NCBI GenBank assembly: GCA_016432405.1
Contig: CP066687.1
Location: forward strand, 1 to 40,455
From: Candidatus Giovannonibacteria bacterium
Lineage (GTDB): Bacteria > Patescibacteriota > Minisyncoccia > UBA11713 > 2-01-FULL-45-33
Length of the DNA stretch: 40,455 nt
Direction of reading: 5' to 3'
The notes under the pieces are model-generated. The model did not search any database. It saw nothing but the letters and a program-made list of their open reading frames with translations, and was not told where the DNA came from. The position numbers and the translations under genes are program-made. Shown here piece after piece: positions 1,240 through 38,078 of the stretch (within the stretch, counting starts at the first letter, position 1; each line of letters starts with the position of its first letter).

Positions 1240-1881
1240 TTAGAATAAAGAGGTTTGTTTGGTCGCCTCTCTTTTCTCTTCTATCTTAACACCTTCATCA
1301 TTTTTTAATAACTCCGGCAATTTTTTAAAATCCGCTTCCAAATCTTTTAAAACCTGCGTTGAACGTAGTGCGGCGGCGGGGTGGTAAAGAGAAACAATAA
1401 TCCGTCCGTCAATTTTCTGAACCTTGCCGTGGTCTCTGGAAATTTTCGCCTCCGGCAAAAAGTAGGCCATTGCAAACCTCCCGAGCGCGACTATCATTTT
1501 TGGATTTATTATTTCTATCTGCTTCGTAAGATACGGCTTATACGCTTCAATCTCCTTCGGCAGTGGGTCTCTATTTTCCGGCGGACGCCTTTTTAAAATG
1601 TTGGTGATATACACCCCCACACCAAAATTTTTTGTGTGGGGGTAAACGGCTTCTCGCGGCCAGCCAATACTAGCAAGTAGTTTGTCAAGCAATTTCCCCG
1701 CCTGCCCAACGAAAGGCCTTACCAACCTGTCCTCATGAAACCCCGGCCCCTCGCCGATAAACATTACCTCCGCGTCCGGGCTCCCCTCCCCAAAAACCAA
1801 ATTCGCCGTCCCATAAAGCGGCAGTGATTTATCCGCCTCCATTTCTTTTTTTAGATTCTCTAATGCTTCGTTTTTATCCAT
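1240..1881 (-). CDS. Uracil-DNA glycosylase, family 4
   Basis: The GEGPGFHEDRLVRPFVGQAGKLLDKLL motif (GEAPG-type) and a C-terminal HPAA motif are characteristic of family 4 UDG. Confidence 0.85.
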   Translation of the reverse strand: MDKNEALENLKKEMEADKSLPLYGTANLVFGEGSPDAEVMFIGEGPGFHEDRLVRPFVGQAGKLLDKLLASIGWPREAVYPHTKNFGVGVYITNILKRRPPENRDPLPKEIEAYKPYLTKQIEIINPKMIVALGRFAMAYFLPEAKISRDHGKVQKIDGRIIVSLYHPAAALRSTQVLKDLEADFKKLPELLKNDEGVKIEEKREATKQTSLF

Positions 1882-1986: not shown

Positions 1987-2024
1987 ACTAAACACTCAAG
2001 GCCGAACGGTTAATGATGTTTAGT
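1987..2024 (-). promoter_or_regulatory. 38-nt palindromic box A, downstream of regulator 1 and upstream of UDG
   Basis: ACTAAACACTCAAGGCCGAACGGTTAATGATGTTTAGT. Outer arms are ACTAAACA/TGTTTAGT with an inner CCG..CGG core. It aligns position for position with boxes B and C. Confidence 0.6.
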
Positions 2025-2068
2025 CACATAATTAGTCGCATAAACAAACCAGAAATTTACGGAGTGCA

Positions 2069-2629
2069 TTATGAAATATTTAGAGTACCAGCACGCCCAA
2101 TACTAACGATGTGCACAAACCCCCTTAAACCCAGAGCTTCCAATGCCTCAAAAAAAACTTGCGGCATGGGACGTCGCCCCAACCAAACGCTTTTCTGCAA
2201 CATTTCATAACCGTAACTCGCAAGTTCGATTCTTAACCAAAGCCGTTTTTTGCGATCGCGTTCCGGAATATCAAAGATAATCAAGCGGATAACTCCGTCC
2301 TCCGGTGGCAAAACGGGTCTAGGGTTATAATTTACTTTGTGAATAAATTTCTTACCTAAATCCGTGATGTGCCATCCTTTTGTGTTTTTTGCTACTAACT
2401 TCTGTCTCTGCAATCTCTGAAGAGTTGAATGAAAAGTCTGCTTAGAAAATCCGTGCGATTTGTCCAATCCTAAAATCTCCCTCCACACTCTCGCTTCCGG
2501 ATACTTGGCAGGAAAAAATGCGTCAACGGTGCCGTATCCGATTTCTCCCAACTTCTTCAAAATCAAAGTGGCGATACTAGGCCTCCTAATTAAAGGTTCG
2601 CTTTTTGGTTTTACCTTGTGGCGCTTCAT
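2069..2629 (-). CDS. PaaX-like transcriptional regulator (N-terminal winged HTH plus C-terminal Cas2/PaaX-type fold), paralog 1
   Basis: C-terminal IIFDIPERDRKKRLWLRIELASYGYEMLQKSVWLG matches the PaaX/Cas2-like pattern (fDIPE..R..lr..L...G...LQ.SVW). The N-terminal half is wHTH-like. It is a paralog of 13222-13791. Confidence 0.6.
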   Translation of the reverse strand: MKRHKVKPKSEPLIRRPSIATLILKKLGEIGYGTVDAFFPAKYPEARVWREILGLDKSHGFSKQTFHSTLQRLQRQKLVAKNTKGWHITDLGKKFIHKVNYNPRPVLPPEDGVIRLIIFDIPERDRKKRLWLRIELASYGYEMLQKSVWLGRRPMPQVFFEALEALGLRGFVHIVSIGRAGTLNIS

Positions 2630-2637
2630 AAACCTAT

Positions 2638-2675
2638 ACTATACACTCAAGACCGGTCGGTCAATATTGTTTAGT
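2638..2675 (-). promoter_or_regulatory. 38-nt palindromic box B overlapping the promoter of regulator 1
   Basis: ACTATACACTCAAGACCGGTCGGTCAATATTGTTTAGT. In minus sense it contains TTGACC (2664-2659), a 17-nt spacer and TAGTAT (2641-2636). The -10 ends 6 nt before the ATG at 2629, which implies a leaderless mRNA. Confidence 0.6.
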
Positions 2676-3345: not shown

Positions 3346-3900
3346 ATGAACCATAACCAACACGATTTAGTGCAAGACTTGGCGATTATGGCGTTGAGCG
3401 TGCTTATCGCCGTCATTTTGGCGACAACCGATATTCTTGCAAAAATACTCGCCTCTGCCCAAGAATTGAAACTTCTTGGCAGTTTTATCGCCGGAATGTT
3501 TTTTACATCGGTTTTTACAGTCGCCCCTGCCGTAGTCGCGCTCGGCAAAATCGCCCAAGCCAATTCCGCGCTACAAGTTGCCATTTTTGGAGCGGCGGGA
3601 GCGGTGGTGGGCGACTTAATAATTTTCCGCTTCGTCAGGGACCGGCTTTCCGGGCACCTCGCGGAGCTGATGCGGAATCGCGGCGTCTGGAAAAGAATCT
3701 CGGCGCTTTTTAAGCTCAAATCCTTCCGATGGGTCGCTTTTTTTGTCGGGGGGCTGATTATCGCCTCCCCTCTCCCTGACGAGGCAGGGGTGAGTTTAAT
3801 GGGACTTTCAAAAATAAAAACTTCGTGGTTCATCCCGCTTTCGTTCGCGTTTAATTTCGCGGGCATTTTGCTCATAGCCGCGGCCGCCAAAGCTCTATGA
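3346..3900 (+). CDS. Hypothetical membrane protein (4-5 TM), translationally coupled to the P-type ATPase
   Basis: 184-aa hydrophobic ORF. Its TGA stop overlaps the ATPase ATG (ATGA at 3897-3900). Confidence 0.55.
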   Translation: MNHNQHDLVQDLAIMALSVLIAVILATTDILAKILASAQELKLLGSFIAGMFFTSVFTVAPAVVALGKIAQANSALQVAIFGAAGAVVGDLIIFRFVRDRLSGHLAELMRNRGVWKRISALFKLKSFRWVAFFVGGLIIASPLPDEAGVSLMGLSKIKTSWFIPLSFAFNFAGILLIAAAAKAL

Positions 3901-9633: not shown

Positions 9634-9708
9634 CTAAATTTCCACACTCTCGCCGTATTTTGGGGCGAAGGCCGGAATGCCTAGATTATCGCGGAGTTTG
9701 AGAAATTA
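9634..9708 (-). pseudogene. Orphan duplicate of the 3' end of the beta-CASP gene (10803-12122)
   Basis: 9642-9696 aligns with 10811-10865 at 47 of 55 positions by manual alignment. It translates to LRDNLGIPAFAPKYGESVEI*, against IRDNLGIPAYAPKYGESVEI* at the real gene end. Confidence 0.75.
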
Positions 9709-10802: not shown

Positions 10803-12122
10803 TTAAATCTCAACACTCTCGCCGTATTTTGGGGCATAGGCCGGAATACCAAGATTGTCACGGATTTTTTGGACGAGAGCCAAAGAGGATTTCGGCTCGC
10901 CGTGGACAGCGTAGACCTTTTTAAGCGTGTCGGAGTGGGCGCGGACGAATTCAAAAAGCGCGTCGCGGTCGGCGTGCGCGGAATAGCCGGAAATCACCTC
11001 AACGCGGCATCTGACCGGAATTTCCTCGCCGAAAATCTCAACGCTTTTTGCGCCGTCCTCTATGCGCCTGCCCAGAGAGCCGGGCGCCTGGTAGCTTACA
11101 ATGAGAAGGGTGCTTCTTTCGTCGGGCAAATATCTCCGCTCATGATGCAAAATCCTCCCACCGGTCGACATCCCCGAACCGGCGATAATAATTTTAGGCG
11201 GCGGGACGCCGTTTATTTTTTTGGATTCTTCGGTGGTCAGGGAAAAATTGACGCCGGGAAACTTAAAAAATGGAATCTTCAAATATTTTTCGTAAATTGA
11301 CGTCGCCTTGATTGAAAGAGGGCTGTCCAGATAAACTGGAATTTTAGGGATTTGTTTTTCTCCCATCATTTTGGATATCACCGATAAAAGCTCCTGCGTC
11401 CTCTCCAAAGCGAAAGCGGGAATCATTAAAACTCCTCCCTGTTTTACAGTCCGCTCAATCACCCGTTCCAGCATCAAAACCCTCTCTGCGCTTTCGTGGG
11501 CGCGGTCGCCGTAGGTTGATTCCATAATCAAACAAGTCGGTTTTTTGACCACCTCCGCAGACCTTTGCAAAATGCTTTCAGCGTTGCCGATGTCTCCACT
11601 GAATAAAATCCGCTCGCCGCCGGAGTCAAAAACGGCCATGGCCGAACCTAATATGTGCCCGGCGTCGTAAAGAGCCGCGGAAAAGCCGCCTATTTTTATC
11701 TCCTCGTGCGTTTCTTTTGCTTCCCACAAAGACGCCGCCTTATCCACGTCGGCTTCGGAATACAACGGCCCCTCGCCCTCGCGCCTCGCCTCTTTCTCCA
11801 AAACGCCGACGCTGTCTTTTAACATAAGTTCCGCCAGCTCTTTGGTCGCGTGGCTGGAAAAAATCTTTCCGCGAAAGCCGTCTTTTATGAGTTTCGGAAT
11901 CCTACCGGTGTGGTCAATGTGCGCATGGGTCACAAAAAGCGCATCTATGCTTTCCGGGCCGAACGGAAATGGCTCGCGGCTCCGAATATCGCAGAATTTC
12001 GGACACTGAAACAGCCCGCAATCCACCAAAATTTTTGTCCGCCGGCCAGCGGATTCCGATTCAAGCAAAAAACAGCTTCCGGTAACCTCCTGTGCCGCGC
12101 CGTAAAAAGAAAGCCGGGTCAT
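10803..12122 (-). CDS. MBL-fold beta-CASP RNA-metabolising hydrolase (CPSF/RNase J-like)
   Basis: HAHIDHTG metal motif, an N-terminal GAAQEVTGSC segment and a beta-CASP-like C-terminal half. Confidence 0.8.
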   Translation of the reverse strand: MTRLSFYGAAQEVTGSCFLLESESAGRRTKILVDCGLFQCPKFCDIRSREPFPFGPESIDALFVTHAHIDHTGRIPKLIKDGFRGKIFSSHATKELAELMLKDSVGVLEKEARREGEGPLYSEADVDKAASLWEAKETHEEIKIGGFSAALYDAGHILGSAMAVFDSGGERILFSGDIGNAESILQRSAEVVKKPTCLIMESTYGDRAHESAERVLMLERVIERTVKQGGVLMIPAFALERTQELLSVISKMMGEKQIPKIPVYLDSPLSIKATSIYEKYLKIPFFKFPGVNFSLTTEESKKINGVPPPKIIIAGSGMSTGGRILHHERRYLPDERSTLLIVSYQAPGSLGRRIEDGAKSVEIFGEEIPVRCRVEVISGYSAHADRDALFEFVRAHSDTLKKVYAVHGEPKSSLALVQKIRDNLGIPAYAPKYGESVEI

Positions 12123-12502
12123 ATTATAAGGAAAAGGCCAACAGCCCCGCCCAATAAGTCAAAGAATAAATCTGAAAGCGTGTCTTCATAGCCGAGAAAA
12201 CCGATATTTACGACGTAGCGGTCTAAAATAAATTCAAAAAACTCCCAGAAAACTCCGGCAAATGCGACCGCACCCAAGACGGCTGCAGCAAATAAAAACC
12301 TTGGGGGAGAAAATGGCGGACCAAAACGTTTCGCGCACCAATTAAAAACAAGCGACACCCAAACTCCTCCCAAAAAATGGTGCGCCATATCCAGCCACCA
12401 AAAGAGATAATAAAGGTTAAACCACAAAGCCAGACCGTGGATTAACAAAAGAAAAACTAAAAATACAAAAATTAAAAGATAGGATTCAAAAAATGGTTTC
12501 AT
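12119..12502 (-). CDS. Hypothetical membrane protein
   Basis: Four predicted TM helices. I chose the ATG at 12502, which overlaps the ndk TGA as TGATG. The ORF-track start at 12505 is TTG. Confidence 0.5.
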   Translation of the reverse strand: MKPFFESYLLIFVFLVFLLLIHGLALWFNLYYLFWWLDMAHHFLGGVWVSLVFNWCAKRFGPPFSPPRFLFAAAVLGAVAFAGVFWEFFEFILDRYVVNIGFLGYEDTLSDLFFDLLGGAVGLFLII

Positions 12503-13092
12503 CAAAACATCACATTCTCGTCAGCGCGCTTATAATCGTGGATTTCCTCCGGAGCAAACCAATGCTCTATCTCATGCGCCGCCTCTTCTTCGTTTCCGGA
12601 AGCGTGCACAATATTTTTAATCGCCCTTTTCTCAACATTTGCAGCTGAGGGAGTATCAATGGAAAAATCGCCTCGGATAGTCCCCGGCAGCGCTTCAACC
12701 GGATAAGTATGGCCGACAATTTTCCGTACCACAGTTACAGCGTGCATCCCTTCTATGATGAAAGCGGTTACTGGCCCGGAGGTCAGGTGTTCTGCCAGCC
12801 ACCCTTTGACCTGTTTGCCGATCGCGACATTTTCGTCCGTCCCGAAATGTTCTTTTACGTCAACATTCTTGGCCTTAAAAAATTCCTTCGTCCGCGCGCC
12901 GACATTTGAAAACCAATCTTCATCGGAAGGATAATGTTTATTTACGTGCTCCGCGGAAGGCCAAACCATCTTTAGCGCGATAATTTTAAGCCCCCGCTTT
13001 TCAAAGCGCGAAACTATTTCCCCAACGATGCCGCGCATCACCCCTTCTGGCTTTATTAAAACAAAAGTTCTCTCTTCTTGCGGTTTTTGCAT
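12502..13092 (-). CDS. ndk: Nucleoside diphosphate kinase (long form)
   Basis: ERTFVLIKPEGVMRGIVGEIVSRFEKRGLKIIALKM and NIVHASG (active-site His). I chose the ATG at 13092 over the GTG at 13119. Confidence 0.8.
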   Translation of the reverse strand: MQKPQEERTFVLIKPEGVMRGIVGEIVSRFEKRGLKIIALKMVWPSAEHVNKHYPSDEDWFSNVGARTKEFFKAKNVDVKEHFGTDENVAIGKQVKGWLAEHLTSGPVTAFIIEGMHAVTVVRKIVGHTYPVEALPGTIRGDFSIDTPSAANVEKRAIKNIVHASGNEEEAAHEIEHWFAPEEIHDYKRADENVMF

Positions 13093-13164
13093 ATTAAATT
13101 GACAATAACAAATCTCCACGCTGCTTTCAAGTTGTTTTTCTTATTATCTTTTTTATCATTAATT

Positions 13165-13200
13165 ACTAAAATTCTATAACGATCGTTTTAAAATTTTAGC
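13165..13200 (-). promoter_or_regulatory. 36-nt palindromic box D, downstream of regulator 2 and upstream of ndk
   Basis: ACTAAAATTCTATAACGATCGTTTTAAAATTTTAGC. Arms are ACTAAAAT/ATTTTAG with a CGATCG core. Confidence 0.55.
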
Positions 13201-13221: not shown

Positions 13222-13791
13222 TTATACCAATTCCCTAACCGTCCCCGCTTTACCAACTTCTAAAATATGCACACAACCAAGCAAGTGCCTCGTGCGCAAA
13301 TCTTCCAAAAATCTTTCCGGGATTCTGCTCTTACCTATCCAAACGCTTTTCTGTAACATTTTAAAACGCAAAAACTTTAACGCTTCCCTAATCCAAGCAC
13401 GTTTCCATTTCTCTTTCTCCGGAATATCAAATAGCACGATTTTCAACTTATCATCGCGGGCAATTTCGTAATCAACCCCACCTCTCTCTTCAAACAATTT
13501 AAGCTTATCAAGACCCGCCGCCGTTATTTTCCACAAAATTCCGCTGCTGTTGCTGTTTTTTTCAACCAATCCTTGCCTTTTTAAGTGGTTAAGCAACGAA
13601 TAAAATTTCTGCTTTTCAATACGTTCTTTTAAATCCTTTTTGGCTGCGAGAGCCCCTGCATATAATGCTCTTCTAGCACTTTTATAAGACCGCTGGTAAT
13701 TTGGTAAAATTTCATCCAAAATCTCCAAAGTGGCCAATCCTCCACCAGCCAAAACTTTTAAAATTTCTTCTATTTTCTTGGATCTCCGCAT
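13222..13791 (-). CDS. PaaX-like transcriptional regulator (wHTH plus Cas2/PaaX-type fold), paralog 2
   Basis: VLFDIPEKEKWKRAWIREALKFLRFKMLQKSVWIG matches the same motif as 2069-2629, with the same length and architecture. Confidence 0.6.
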   Translation of the reverse strand: MRRSKKIEEILKVLAGGGLATLEILDEILPNYQRSYKSARRALYAGALAAKKDLKERIEKQKFYSLLNHLKRQGLVEKNSNSSGILWKITAAGLDKLKLFEERGGVDYEIARDDKLKIVLFDIPEKEKWKRAWIREALKFLRFKMLQKSVWIGKSRIPERFLEDLRTRHLLGCVHILEVGKAGTVRELV

Positions 13792-13803: not shown

Positions 13804-13839
13804 ACTAAAATTATAATGCGATCGTCAAATAATTTTAGT
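13804..13839 (-). promoter_or_regulatory. 36-nt palindromic box E overlapping the promoter of regulator 2
   Basis: ACTAAAATTATAATGCGATCGTCAAATAATTTTAGT. In minus sense it contains TTGACG (13828-13823), an 18-nt spacer and TAATAT (13804-13799), 7 nt before the ATG at 13791. Confidence 0.55.
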
Positions 13840-19833: not shown

Positions 19834-20603
19834 TTTATTTTATCAACTGCTTTTACTAAACTAACAAATTTTTTGGCGTTCAAACTGGCCCCGCCGACCA
19901 AAAGCCCATCAACCGCGCCCTTGGCGACAAAATCCGCCGCGTTTTTTTCATCAACCGAACCGCCGTAGAGCACCGGTATTTTTGAAGCCGCGCGCTTTCC
20001 AAGCGCGCGGTAAAGCTCGCGCCGTATCAAAATCGCCATTTCATAAACGTTTTTCGGAGTATCGGCTTTCCCGCGTCCGCCGCCGCTTATCGCCCATACC
20101 GGTTCGTAGGCAATTATTAAATTTGCAAGCAAAGATTTTTTAATTTTGCGGATTCCGCCCAAAAGCTCCTCGCGGACGATTTTCGGGAAAACTTCGCCGG
20201 GTTTTCGCTCTTTTTCTCCAACGCATAAAACGGCTCGCATGCCGGATTCCAAAACGGCCTTTGTTTTTTTATTTACCGCCTCATCCGTTTCCCCCATAGC
20301 CCGCCGTTCCGAGTGCCCGATGACAACAATCCTTGCGCCGGACGCTTTAAGTTGTAAGGGAGAAATCTCGCCCGTAAACGCTCCTTCTCTTTCGTAAAAC
20401 ACGTCTTGAGCGCCGAGTTTGAATATATTGCGTACGGCGTACGGCGTATGGCGCAAGATTGGCAAAAACACAAACGGAGGAACCAAAACAATTTCTACTC
20501 CCCGGACGCTTTTAACTCCGCGCCCGACTTCGTTAGCAAGGTGCAACGCCTCGCGGGGAGTTTGCGGCGCCATCTTCCAGTTTGCGATAATTATTTTTTT
20601 CAT
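19830..20603 (-). CDS. tpiA: Triosephosphate isomerase
   Basis: IIANWKM, VIGHSERR and AYEPVWAI motifs. Confidence 0.9.
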   Translation of the reverse strand: MKKIIIANWKMAPQTPREALHLANEVGRGVKSVRGVEIVLVPPFVFLPILRHTPYAVRNIFKLGAQDVFYEREGAFTGEISPLQLKASGARIVVIGHSERRAMGETDEAVNKKTKAVLESGMRAVLCVGEKERKPGEVFPKIVREELLGGIRKIKKSLLANLIIAYEPVWAISGGGRGKADTPKNVYEMAILIRRELYRALGKRAASKIPVLYGGSVDEKNAADFVAKGAVDGLLVGGASLNAKKFVSLVKAVDKIK

Positions 20604-27132: not shown

Positions 27133-27143
27133 TTGGATTTGTT

Positions 27144-27171
27144 TAGAAATTAGAAATTTGAAATTAGAAAT
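27144..27171. repeat. Four tandem heptamers TAGAAAT/TTGAAAT in the rplF-rplR spacer
   Basis: TAGAAAT TAGAAAT TTGAAAT TAGAAAT. Confidence 0.85.
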
Positions 27172-27176
27172 TGCCG

Positions 27177-28119: not shown

Positions 28120-28139
28120 AATACTAATTACTAATTTTT

Positions 28140-28150
28140 TACGAATATAC
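28140..28150. repeat. Left copy of the 11-bp inverted repeat TACGAATATAC flanking the CsaA/GxxExxY insertion
   Basis: The reverse complement GTATATTCGTA occurs at 28902-28912. The spacer also contains ATACTAAT twice (28121-28128 and 28147-28154). Confidence 0.5.
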
Positions 28151-28157
28151 TAATAAT

Positions 28158-28490
28158 TTAAAACATCTTTTTTCCCAACGGGACACTCTTTGTCGGAGAC
28201 AGAAGCACAACATCTCCATTTTCATCAGGAAGACCGAGCGTCAATACTTCGGAGATAAACGGGCCGATTTGCTTCGGCGGGAAATTGACTACTGCAATCA
28301 CTTGTTTCCCTAATAATTTTTCTTTCGTATAATGTTCGGTGATTTGTACAGATGATTTTTTAATACCGATTTCTTCTCCAAAATTAATATCCAGTTTATA
28401 AGCTGGCTTTCGCGCTTCAGGAAAGTCCTCCACTTTAACCACCTCGCCTACTCTAACATCAACTTTTTCAAAATCTGAATAATTTATCAT
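28158..28490 (-). CDS. tRNA-binding domain protein (CsaA/YgjH, EMAP-II-like OB fold)
   Basis: FEKVDVRVGEVVKVEDFPEARKPAYKLDINFG...VIAVVNFPPKQIG matches the CsaA-type tRNA-binding domain. Confidence 0.75.
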   Translation of the reverse strand: MINYSDFEKVDVRVGEVVKVEDFPEARKPAYKLDINFGEEIGIKKSSVQITEHYTKEKLLGKQVIAVVNFPPKQIGPFISEVLTLGLPDENGDVVLLSPTKSVPLGKKMF

Positions 28491-28498
28491 CGTGGTAA

Positions 28499-28897
28499 TT
28501 ATTTAATATTAAGTATCCTCCTAAATTTAATGCCGCTTGGGGTAAATTGCGCAAGAATTCCTAATTTTAGACCTGTGGCTATTAGGTAGGCGTAAATTTG
28601 GTCAATATTGCTTTTAGCAACTCGTTCGCCTCGTTTCAACTCCAATACAACTTTATCATCCACAAGAAAATCTAGGAAATAATTTCCAATTTTCTCGTCT
28701 TTAAACTTTAAAGGAACAAGATATTGCTCTTTGTAATTCAATCCGGCCAATTTTAACGCGGCCGCGGTAGCTTTCTCATAATATTTTTCTTGGTATCCGT
28801 AACCTAGCTGATTATAAACATCAAACAAAATGCCAATTATTTTATAGCTTAGCTCTGGATATATTAAATCTGTTCTTATTTCTTTTTTCGTATTCAT
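28499..28897 (-). CDS. GxxExxY family protein (PD-(D/E)XK-like)
   Basis: GYGYQEKYYEKA (the GxxExxY motif), DFLVDDKVVLELK and the C-terminal GILAQF pattern typical of this family. Confidence 0.75.
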   Translation of the reverse strand: MNTKKEIRTDLIYPELSYKIIGILFDVYNQLGYGYQEKYYEKATAAALKLAGLNYKEQYLVPLKFKDEKIGNYFLDFLVDDKVVLELKRGERVAKSNIDQIYAYLIATGLKLGILAQFTPSGIKFRRILNIK

Positions 28898-28930
28898 ATT
28901 CGTATATTCGTATCAGATTCGTAATTCGTA
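28898..28930. repeat. Four copies of ATTCGTA between the rpsZ stop and the GxxExxY start
   Basis: ATTCGTAT ATTCGTAT cag ATTCGTA ATTCGTA. It contains the right copy of the inverted 11-mer. Confidence 0.8.
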
Positions 28931-33451: not shown

Positions 33452-33916
33452 TTAAAATTCAGTTATCTTGTCACCTGCCTTTAATACCACTACGGCTTTT
33501 TTAAATCCCGATTTTACGCCGAGAATCTGGCCGCGCCTCCGGTTTTTATCTCTCGGGGCGATAATATTTATAAATTCAACGCCGACGCCGTAACGGCTTT
33601 CAATCGCCCGTTTTAACGAATTTTTGTCCGCGTTGTCCGCAACTTTAAATACATACCTGTCATCGCCGAGCATCGTCGCTTTCTCAGAAATATGAGGCGC
33701 GATAAGTAATTTCCAAGCGATTCCGCTTTTATTTTTGACAACGCCTCGCGGGAAAACACTCGGTGTTTTTGAGGATTCAACACCGAGTGTTGAGGAGCGA
33801 GGCGGCGTTGCGGAAGGCGCGCGCCCACGCCTAGAAATTTCATCCGCAGGGCGCGGAGCTTTTTTCGCCTCTTTCCTCCTCCACCCCCCGAAAATTTGCG
33901 CTAAATTAAACGGCAT
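33452..33916 (-). CDS. rplW: 50S ribosomal protein L23 with an Arg/Pro/Ser-rich N-terminal extension of about 60 aa
   Basis: The L23 core is LIAPHISEKAT...YVFKV...KRAIESRYGVGVEFINI...KKAVVVLK. No alternative in-frame start lies near the core. Confidence 0.8.
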   Translation of the reverse strand: MPFNLAQIFGGWRRKEAKKAPRPADEISRRGRAPSATPPRSSTLGVESSKTPSVFPRGVVKNKSGIAWKLLIAPHISEKATMLGDDRYVFKVADNADKNSLKRAIESRYGVGVEFINIIAPRDKNRRRGQILGVKSGFKKAVVVLKAGDKITEF

Positions 33917-34055
33917 ACCAGGTAGTAGAAAAATCGATTAGTGATAATGCTTTTGTAAATATAACCTCAAATTTCGGCCCAATATAAAACTGCCGGATAG
34001 CCGCTGGATTTCGTAATATCACCAAAAAGCAATCGATTTTTTCACTACCTGGCAT
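33914..34055. repeat. About 140-nt element bounded by 24-26 nt inverted repeats in the rplD-rplW junction
   Basis: The left arm ATACCAGGTAGTAGAAAAATCGATT (33915-33939, the arm without the leading C of the start codon) pairs with the right arm AATCGATTTTTTCACTACCTGGCAT (34031-34055). The core is 20 of 22 complementary. The arms include the rplW ATG and the rplD stop codon. Confidence 0.8.
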
Positions 34056-37417: not shown

Positions 37418-37762
37418 TCACTTTGGATGGTTTTTCACAATCCCCACCAGCCGGTTCTGCTGGTCAAAGATGGCGAACAGGTCCTTGCTCTCCAAAAGCC
37501 GCCTCTGCTGCTCCGGCGGCAGTTCAAAGAACTTAAAAGCGGTGGTGCTACCCAATTCGTCCTCGCCCCAATTTATCTGCATGTTTTCGGGGCGGAAGCA
37601 CACGAAGCCGCTCGGATTTTTTACATTCACGGAGCAAACCGGAACCCTTTTGGTGCGATCAATACTAATCTTGATTTTTGTCCCATCAGGGAGTTCTAAC
37701 ATTGCGCGCCTTTGTCCATCGGAAACCCTAAGTCTTTCGACTTCTATATTTTTTTCTGCCAT
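37418..37762 (-). CDS. Hypothetical protein (cassette 4, 114 aa) between fusA and tuf
   Basis: An ATG ORF with a purine-rich GGAGAAAGGGGA upstream, plus its own promoter and terminator. No recognised domain. Confidence 0.6.
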   Translation of the reverse strand: MAEKNIEVERLRVSDGQRRAMLELPDGTKIKISIDRTKRVPVCSVNVKNPSGFVCFRPENMQINWGEDELGSTTAFKFFELPPEQQRRLLESKDLFAIFDQQNRLVGIVKNHPK

Positions 37763-37847: not shown

Positions 37848-37885
37848 ACTATACACTCAAAGCCGATCGGTTGAAAGTGTTTAGT
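37848..37885 (-). promoter_or_regulatory. 38-nt palindromic box C, an orphan copy of the regulator-1 box
   Basis: ACTATACACTCAAAGCCGATCGGTTGAAAGTGTTTAGT. It matches box B (2638-2675) at about 31 of 38 positions and lies about 20 nt upstream of the cassette 4 -35. Confidence 0.6.
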
Positions 37886-37916: not shown

Positions 37917-37946
37917 ACCAACTTCCAGCGATCGCTGAAAGTTGGT
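37917..37946 (-). terminator. 30-nt near-perfect palindrome centred on GCGATCGC; probable fusA terminator or a third box type
   Basis: ACCAACTTCCAGCGATCGCTGAAAGTTGGT has 14 of 15 pairs. In minus sense it is followed by TTTGCAGCGCCTTTAATGTCGCTTTTTGTT, an imperfect U-tract. Confidence 0.45.
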
Positions 37947-37967
37947 ACAGACAATAATGGTTAAGTC

Positions 37968-38078
37968 CTACACCGGCAAATCGTCAAGTTCGGGCTCCGA
38001 ATCCAAATCTTCGGCGAGCAATTCGTCGGACAATATTTTTTCTTCTTTCTCTGTGTTTTTTTCGTCTTCGTTTTCCAT
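37968..38078 (-). CDS. Candidate 36-aa highly acidic micro-ORF coupled to the fusA stop
   Basis: TAATG overlaps the fusA stop. It translates to [36 protein letters not shown]. It is below the ORF-track size cutoff and has no independent support. Confidence 0.3.
   Translation of the reverse strand: MENEDEKNTEKEEKILSDELLAEDLDSEPELDDLPV

Follow-up and report, generated by a model that had tools for sequence, protein, structure and literature searches.

This study concerns a pair of small regulator genes in a 40,455-nucleotide stretch of DNA from a Candidatus Giovannonibacteria bacterium (assembly GCA_016432405.1, contig CP066687.1, positions 1 to 40,455 of the forward strand; hereafter the window). 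Each gene encodes a PaaX-like protein and is bracketed by two copies of a palindromic box. On the best reading of the data, the two paralogs have diverged in the arms that they recognize and form orthogonal regulator/operator pairs. The explanation as a whole, in which each protein also represses its own gene, we consider the best available and quite likely, if well short of certain. Specificity-diverged pairs had already been proposed from the window sequence alone (hereafter the sequence-only reading), and the proposal is now supported by the layout seen in 80 homologous loci, the arms of the boxes, and a rule linking one protein residue, at position 146, to the central base pairs of the boxes. 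The two modules and one additional box consist of the following features.

2069..2629, minus strand: paralog 1, a mini-PaaX protein of 186 amino acids (aa), winged helix at about residues 19-98 and Cas2-like PaaX_M domain at about 111-184.
1987..2024, no strand: box A, putative type-1 operator; dyad between 2005 and 2006, imperfect core CCGAACGG.
2638..2675, no strand: box B, putative type-1 operator over the promoter of paralog 1; dyad between 2656 and 2657, core CCGGTCGG.
13222..13791, minus strand: paralog 2, a mini-PaaX protein of 189 aa, 38% identical to paralog 1.
13165..13200, no strand: box D, putative type-2 operator, 22 nt past the stop codon of paralog 2, with the NDK gene downstream.
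13804..13839, no strand: box E, putative type-2 operator over the promoter of paralog 2; arms ACTAAAAT/ATTTTAGT, core GCGATCGT.
37848..37885, no strand: box C, orphan putative type-1 operator; perfect core CCGATCGG.

Read from the window, box A is ACTAAACACTCAAGGCCGAACGGTTAATGATGTTTAGT and box B is ACTATACACTCAAGACCGGTCGGTCAATATTGTTTAGT; their coordinates and sequences, as well as the 186-aa minus-strand open reading frame (ORF), are as the sequence-only reading had given them. It had also pointed to a paralog at 13222-13791 with the same layout and other arms, and boxes D and E indeed bracket that gene. Box A ends 44 nt from the stop codon of paralog 1 and lies 105 nt from the start (1881) of a uracil-DNA glycosylase (UDG) gene, while box B ends 9 nt from the ATG (2629) of paralog 1. 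The centres are 651 bp apart for A and B and 639 bp apart for D and E. Boxes A, B and C have one arm type and boxes D and E another. The first three also share a left spacer, CTCAARR, with a TTGAC-like element on the other side facing minus-strand genes. The pattern ACTAWACAC-N21-TGTTTAGT matches A, B and C only in the window, where 100 shuffles lead one to expect no match; the version first proposed, with N20, is one base short and finds nothing. Likewise, the type-2 pattern matches solely at 13165-13200 and 13804-13839, against a chance expectation of 0.

Both paralogs are what we call mini-PaaX proteins, a winged helix followed by a Cas2-like PaaX_M domain without the ligand-binding C-terminus of PaaX, because the protein stops where that domain would start. 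PF20803 (PaaX_M) matches the two paralogs at E=4.5e-11 and 2.5e-10 (43.1 and 40.7 bits, cutoff 24), and weak MarR, PadR and HTH_45 matches at residues 55-100 mark the winged helix. PaaX_C, the ligand-binding domain, gave no match, and paralog 1 ends at residue 186, directly past the Cas2-like domain. In an AlphaFold2 model (pLDDT 77) the winged helix comprises helices at 19-30 and 63-75 and a wing at 79-88. A Foldseek search with this model returned E. coli PaaX (8a39) as the top full-length match, with Rv0674 also among the best, and Cas2 structures matched the C-terminal domain. TIGR01573 (Cas2) matches paralog 1 at 24.6 bits, for a cutoff of 24.5, and the PADLOC Cas2 models match at E about 1e-6, at the level of the domain only. 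The earlier assignment to a winged-helix, PaaX-like family thus holds: PF20803 is above its cutoff, the Cas2 and winged-helix matches are weak, and the top structural match is PaaX itself. In a profile search at E<=1e-10 the family comprised 2,846 clusters (50% identity), nearly all of 170-215 aa, in Sungbacteria, Giovannonibacteria and other Parcubacteria; it was essentially absent from viral contigs, with one weak match.

The resemblance to Cas2 of CRISPR systems extends to an FDI(P) Asp at the end of strand beta1 and a QxSV(W/F) motif. In Cas1-Cas2 complexes a Cas2 dimer lies across duplex DNA. The mini-PaaX domain differs in being fused to a winged helix and in apparently reading bases at the dyad rather than measuring a protospacer. 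No cas1 was found among the called genes within +/-10 kb and no CRISPR repeat array in the window; a CRISPR module was rejected on the absence of both.

To examine the layout in the family (Parcubacteria), 80 homologous loci were fetched from GTDB genomes, and the 300 nt around each start were compared with the 280 nt past the stop. Most of these loci share a palindrome of 30-50 nt on both sides of the gene, far above shuffled controls. Every CGRYCG in about 488 kb was scored for dyad symmetry at positions 4-20, and the scores were bimodal, with a chance peak at 4/17 and a second mode at 10-17. An upstream box was called in 61 of the 80 loci, a downstream box in 67 and both in 57, so that the box-gene-box layout claimed from one window recurs throughout the family; several loci with a variant TGATCA core or truncated flanks fall outside these counts. 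The high-scoring boxes nearly all flank the focal genes. Only 20 calls lie elsewhere in the 80 loci, several of them GC-rich chance palindromes.

The anatomy of the boxes was drawn from 116 of them. They are 36-42 bp long, with a core (A/C/G)CGATCG(T/G/C), a spacer at positions 5-11 from the dyad that is 60-70% symmetric, and arms of 6-8 bp at positions 12-18, about 22 bp apart, that are more than 90% symmetric and specific to the locus; symmetry is down to the background level by position 23. The boxes of a pair lie a median 655 bp apart, centre to centre. Their common orientation, stressed in the sequence-only reading, is true of A, B and C in the window and fails as a family rule: 40 pairs score higher as direct and 18 as inverted repeats, and at a margin of at least 3 positions there are 16 direct, 13 inverted and 29 ambiguous pairs. 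We also noted a strand-symmetric bias in composition: G is nearly missing 5' of the dyad (1-3% at positions 7-17), as is C on the 3' side. Two loci carry three extra boxes of their own type, arrayed about 1 kb upstream of the module (L032, 1670-2010; L055, about 1800-2000). The extra boxes of L032 occupy a 600-nt intergenic region in repeated units of about 130-180 nt, along with a GC-rich stretch that is possibly a structured RNA.

The strongest evidence that the protein recognizes these boxes is a covariation between the two. Lysine or arginine at position 146 goes with CGATCG in 108 boxes and with CGGCCG in none; with glutamine, glycine or glutamate the core is CGGCCG (15 boxes) or CGGYCG, and CGATCG does not occur. 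K146 belongs to the motif LQKSVW, in the beta2-beta3 turn of the Cas2-like domain. Most of the non-K proteins have K proteins as their nearest relatives, which implies about nine independent switches at this position. Among all column-by-position associations, that of residue 146 with the central base pairs ranks first (AMI 0.52). The second links R126, at the N-terminus of helix alpha1, to core positions 3-4: with Q at 126 position 4 is always C, and with K at 126 G is enriched there. Paralogs within one genome obey the rule for residue 146 as well (L026/L029 versus L062, L001 versus L080). In a blind test, proteins with Q, E, H or N were picked from an independent profile search and their contigs fetched. 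Four Q proteins and one E protein had ACGGCCGT in 9/9 flanking boxes, whereas one H and one N protein had a central AT or GT. The blind test thus confirmed the residue-to-base rule, by which K/R146 goes with a central AT and Q/G/E with a central GC.

Since residue 146 predicts the central base pairs, the Cas2-like domain is probably the reader of the core, and the winged helix probably that of the arms. Fold topology places the last part of beta1, the first part of alpha1 and the beta2-beta3 turn together at one end of the domain, so that the covarying residues form a single surface.

The arms are identical between both boxes of a locus, and paralogs of one genome are no more alike in their arms than random pairs (similarity 0.51 versus 0.53). 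With the Cas2-like domain controlled for, arm similarity tracks that of the winged helix (partial r 0.15, permutation p 0.002). The sequence-only reading held that protein paralog and DNA box co-vary; they do, both in arms that are specific to each paralog within a genome and in a core predicted by residue 146.

These data also bear on whether the boxes might be sites of another factor, such as a global regulator, a methyltransferase or restriction system acting on CGATCG, or simply a generic promoter architecture. CGATCG is among the known targets of methyltransferases and restriction enzymes and makes up the middle of the HIP1 octamer of cyanobacteria, and some boxes contain TTGAC and -10-like hexamers. 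Such a factor would have to account for a central base pair predicted by residue 146 of the adjacent protein, even between paralogs of the same genome, for arm types that differ between those paralogs, and for the strong concentration of boxes at mini-PaaX genes. The residue-146 rule and the paralog-specific arms have largely refuted this alternative, and we regard it as highly improbable.

For the protein as repressor, PaaX itself offers the closest precedent. This phenylacetyl-CoA-responsive repressor from E. coli and Pseudomonas (PDB 8a39, 3l09) has, like mini-PaaX, an N-terminal winged helix and then a Cas2-like PaaX_M domain. The E. coli operator is TGATTC-N27-GAATCA, and PaaX represses its own promoter (Px) by occlusion (PMC9493321). 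Like the boxes, this operator consists of short inverted repeats, about three helical turns apart, and the boxes thus have PaaX-type operator geometry. The differences are equally clear. Mini-PaaX has only 186-189 aa and lacks the C-terminal ligand-binding domain; the core of its boxes, CGATCG, hardly varies and seems to be read by the Cas2-like domain; there is a second operator downstream of the gene; and several orthogonal paralogs occur per genome, in hosts from the Parcubacteria and the candidate phyla radiation (CPR). Moreover, no paa genes lie near the window modules, the neighbours being DedA, UDG, MFS, PolX, NDK and a metallo-beta-lactamase (MBL)-fold protein.

The promoter hexamers of box B are where the sequence-only reading had placed them: TTGACC-17-TAGTAT runs from 2664 to 2636 on the minus strand, its -10 ending 6 nt from the ATG, a match by consensus only. 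Paralog 2 has TTGACG-18-TAATAT ending 7 nt from its ATG, again only a consensus match. In the family, 18-60 nt separate the centre of the upstream box from the ATG, and the distances have two modes, 26-32 and 43-50 nt. The first is consistent with leaderless transcripts; in the second a TATAAT-like element often stands just outside the box, and both distances would fit autorepression by promoter occlusion. For paralog 1 we infer from sequence the dimer geometry, the autorepression and the leaderless start.

We therefore propose the following mechanism in conditional terms. The gene product would be a homodimeric, sequence-specific repressor of the PaaX type and the boxes its own operators. A dimer of the Cas2-like domain would sit on the dyad and read the 8-bp core, K146 reading the central A.T pair, probably via the minor groove (the preference for Lys or Arg suggests such a contact at the central A.T step), and R126 reading positions 3-4. 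The two winged helices would reach about 15 bp to each side and read the paralog-specific arms. With the -35 beside the core, the -10 in an arm and a near-leaderless start, the upstream box would overlap the promoter of the gene and permit autorepression. The downstream box might, more speculatively, loop out the gene of about 650 bp together with the upstream box, or carry a bound protein as a roadblock that would insulate the module from read-through and convergent transcription. Further copies before other genes would add a small regulon: box A for UDG, box D for NDK and box C for the 114-aa ORF and tuf.

The downstream box was analysed in relation to the next gene, which is convergent in 27/58 loci and co-directional in 28/58, often after a gap of less than 100 nt. 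Of the convergent cases 32/40 have the box, as do 32/36 of the co-directional ones, and it is as symmetric in the former as in the latter. Its presence whatever the orientation of the neighbour makes it a part of the module and not the operator of the neighbour; as a general rule, the latter idea was rejected on the 27/58 convergent neighbours. An intrinsic terminator was rejected too, as no T-tract follows the 116 boxes and terminator-like sites are found after 16/79 of these genes versus 67/250 of others. A role in looping or as a roadblock or insulator is plausible. In phage lambda, the cI region is bracketed by OL and OR, and looping sharpens autoregulation. There too, a repressor gene lies between operators for its own product, although CI has another fold and the lambda operators are tripartite and 2.4 kb apart, whereas only the two-operator layout is seen here.

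Several observations count against the autorepressor explanation and are gathered here. Where the downstream box lies between convergent stops (27/58), it can have no operator role at a promoter, and its conservation is thus left unexplained by a plain repressor model. Promoter hexamers are no more numerous per region than expected from shuffling. The covariation of the winged helix with the arms is weak (AMI at most 0.2). D120 and E123 (FDIPE) are invariant and correspond to the metal-binding end of Cas2 strand beta1, which leaves room for a catalytic role. Finally, some boxes show a compensatory symmetry that protein recognition alone does not predict. In L024 and L074 each copy is a perfect palindrome while the spacers differ between copies. 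On groundwater contigs from Hainich H43 (L096, L101, L106, L109-L115), at least 8 distinct sites carry the identical 32-bp palindrome CCCCAACTTTGCTCGATCGAGCAAAGTTGGGG, and their outer 5 nt vary between sites yet are symmetric within each (ACTGT/ACAGT, CACGT/ACGTG, CATAT/ATATG and others). Some of the H43 sites also cluster, with 2-3 different box types 70-100 nt apart.

Symmetry of this kind would be natural if the boxes acted as hairpins of RNA or single-stranded DNA, in termination, stabilisation or processing, and were bound or cut, at either end of the protein's own message, by the Cas2 domain with its RRM/ferredoxin-like fold. Many boxes are perfect palindromes of 36-42 nt, two-sided changes in the spacer keep both copies paired in 35/74 cases, and downstream boxes occupy positions in the 3' untranslated region. 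A further box of the window, box F, folds as single-stranded DNA at -12.4 kcal/mol (z = -5.2). For the type-1 boxes of the window, however, folding is weak (-3.8 to -5 kcal/mol, z -1.4 to -2.1), and the spacers are not complementary. Across the family, with boxes selected by their arms only, symmetry within a copy is barely above that between copies (390 versus 352 of 574, p = 0.07), so that most of it reflects shared half-site sequence. The missing T-tracts and the count of terminator-like sites given above argue against termination, and a leaderless start would put the upstream box outside the mRNA of its own gene. Template-switch correction of quasi-palindromes could produce the symmetric outer flanks. 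No Rfam family matched; this, the weak folding of type 1 and the p value of 0.07 led us to reject a structured RNA, and we think a hairpin function unlikely.

Another alternative treats the box-gene-box unit as a cassette that moves or propagates itself, comparable to REP/RAYT, lox or integron systems. Here, the Cas2-like domain would be a nuclease or strand transferase acting at the CGATCG core, the arms would be binding sites of this enzyme, and the orphan boxes would be empty sites or dispersed miniature elements. The gene is bracketed by cognate palindromes whatever its neighbours, and these are very diverse, 286 proteins falling into 217 clusters. Between conserved ArgRS/IleRS flanks the module has opposite orientations in L005 and in L027/L029/L031, and in L068 versus L042/L045/L050/L051 (also given as L042-L051), with TrxB flanks, the inversion comes with a change of box and protein type at the same position. 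Identical flanking repeats longer than the palindrome are found in L047 (49 nt) and L058 (78 nt), one population, that of Hainich H43, holds the at least 8 identical 32-bp copies, and the Cas2-type Asp of FDIPE is invariant.

Against mobility stands, above all, a stable genomic context. In syntenic groups the protein is conserved at least as well as its housekeeping flanks (80-85% versus 57-71% in L002/L004/L016), and the same protein on 13 contigs is always found between DedA and UDG. No polymorphism between occupied and empty sites was seen among these 13 identical contexts, in a search for empty sites that was not exhaustive. No recombinase or transposase lies nearby, the family is essentially absent from viral contigs, and the neighbours in relatives are housekeeping genes (IleRS, ArgRS, DnaE, LepA, TrxB, GAPDH). 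Cross-copy symmetry does not exceed within-copy symmetry (352 versus 390), on which ground recent integration by crossover at the core was rejected. At six boxes in about 50 kb, this genome has a low copy number, and orphan boxes lie mostly near promoters. A phage or defence element was rejected as well, since there was no PHROG match, the PADLOC Cas2 match was at domain level and viral contigs gave the one weak match.

The likeness to REP/RAYT systems is real in that cognate palindromes flank the gene, several types occur per genome and extra copies are intergenic. Mini-PaaX, however, is not an HUH/Y1 transposase, its only domains being the winged helix and PaaX_M, and its boxes differ from REP sequences in their low copy number, the mostly promoter-proximal position of extra copies and stable synteny. 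A generic REP element, which the sequence-only reading had named as a point to check, does not fit this genome: four of the six boxes flank two genes, and besides these about 50 kb of genome has only C and F. Its other suggestion, a self-contained duplicating module, stands in part, for the unit is kept regardless of neighbour orientation, while synteny is stable and no sign of mobility was found. We consider a cassette unlikely.

Direct repeats that run beyond the palindrome surround the modules of L016 and L058 as well as that of L047. L016 has a 57-nt direct repeat (2861-2917 and 3584-3640), a terminator-like hairpin with a T-tract that extends past the palindrome, and the 78-nt direct repeat of L058 (76-153 and 916-993) includes two box types.

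A catalytic version of this idea, in which the Cas2-like domain is active at the CGATCG core and box-gene-box is a self-propagating or invertible unit, seems to us equally doubtful. It is entertained because the invariant Asp and Glu of FDIPE sit at the same end of the fold as K146 and R126, and because the core is the only sequence common to all box types. Such units would nick, hairpin or exchange DNA at the boxes. This would explain the second box, the inverted modules, the compensatory perfect palindromes and the identical multi-copy orphan boxes, and, if true, the protein would be a Cas2-fold sequence-specific DNA enzyme outside CRISPR, perhaps related to the ancestor from which the adaptation module arose.

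Returning to the autorepressor explanation, the orphan boxes and the genes next to them point to possible targets. The relevant features of the window are these.

1240..1881, minus strand: UDG gene, candidate target downstream of box A.
12502-13119, minus strand: NDK gene, downstream of box D.
37418..37762, minus strand: 114-aa ORF without family match, preceding tuf; possible target for boxes C and F.
37917..37946, no strand: box F, third arm type; ACCAACTTCCAGCGATCGCTGAAAGTTGGT.

After each of the six boxes comes a minus-strand gene: UDG, the regulator, the 114-aa ORF with tuf, NDK or paralog 2. In other contigs with the same mini-PaaX protein, UDG is followed by MFS and PolX genes. Box C is flanked by fusA and by the 114-aa ORF, behind which comes tuf, and a promoter-like site (37829 to 37801, minus strand) lies 19 nt downstream of the box. 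The 114-aa ORF (37418-37762) had no match in Pfam, NCBIfam, PHROG or PADLOC. A very acidic 39-aa ORF (37960-38077, minus strand) begins directly past the fusA stop, and the two ORFs together break up the usual adjacency of fusA and tuf.

The boxes of paralog 1 itself have imperfect cores, CGAACG and CGGTCG, and the orphan box C has the perfect CGATCG that K146 predicts. Given this difference, the regulator's own sites (A and B) may be weaker than its target site C. Around box A, a 12-nt unit, TTAGTCACATAA, occurs twice at 2020-2043, overlapping the right arm; the second TTAGTC lies 12 nt further out and could be an extra half-site.

Box F, which was found by a palindrome scan, shares the interval between fusA and the 114-aa ORF with box C, 65 nt away, and has the layout ACCAACTT..GCGATCGC..AAGTTGGT. 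No cognate paralog is present within the window. Orphan boxes are mostly 24-111 nt upstream of gene starts (L096, L101, L109 dnaJ, L113, L093). On metagenome contigs with the arms of box F, the targets include dnaJ, a 1,198-aa protein and a divergent pair, and the orphan boxes often stand beside a box of another type, as C and F do here. Six of 27 such contigs have a divergent mini-PaaX gene, of the 'WDxxWR' kind, next to the box. Since boxes of this type adjoin divergent mini-PaaX genes elsewhere, the genome should hold a third, more divergent paralog, the cognate of box F.

The window contains several other features unrelated to the modules. At 28122-28930, a PDDEXK_3 nuclease gene (28499-28897) and a gene with a tRNA-binding domain (28158-28490) separate rplE/S14 from rpsH within the ribosomal protein operon, an insertion bracketed by repeats rich in ATTCGTA/TACGAAT (a 19-nt tandem at 28887-28930 and an inverted match at 28122-28155). 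A 65-nt direct repeat of 86% identity (9635-9699 and 10804-10868) has one copy just past a methyltransferase gene, and a beta-CASP/MBL gene carries the second copy in its 3' end. Between the L23 and L4 genes lies a 25-nt inverted repeat (33915-33939 and 34031-34055, 88% complementary, 91 nt apart) that could be a structured leader or attenuator. Heptamer tandem repeats occur at 20430-20453 (GCGTACG x3.4) and 27143-27172 (TTAGAAA x4.3).

A PaaX-type repressor with its operator is already known. What appears to be undescribed is the obligatory operator-gene-operator module, the probable reading of a core by a Cas2 fold according to a residue-to-base rule, and the radiation of orthogonal paralogs in the CPR. 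The sequence-only reading knew of no earlier account of this architecture, and our full-text literature search likewise turned up no description of such boxes and no paper that connects PaaX-like or Cas2-like proteins with the CPR.

CPR bacteria (Patescibacteria) have tiny genomes with few recognisable regulators, and to our knowledge almost nothing is known of how they regulate transcription. The two-part recognition code, in which residue 146 would specify the central pair and R/K/Q126 positions 3-4, is testable and possibly engineerable, and the orthogonal paralog/operator pairs that occur naturally might be used as components of synthetic circuits. The code would also give a sequence-reading role to a Cas2-fold domain, commonly regarded as a scaffold or nuclease, and the conserved downstream operator in 3'-3' intergenic regions is a design feature beyond what a plain repressor model explains. 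As each gene carries two copies of its own site, the putative operators can be read directly from the genome, and regulons would become predictable across thousands of uncultured genomes.

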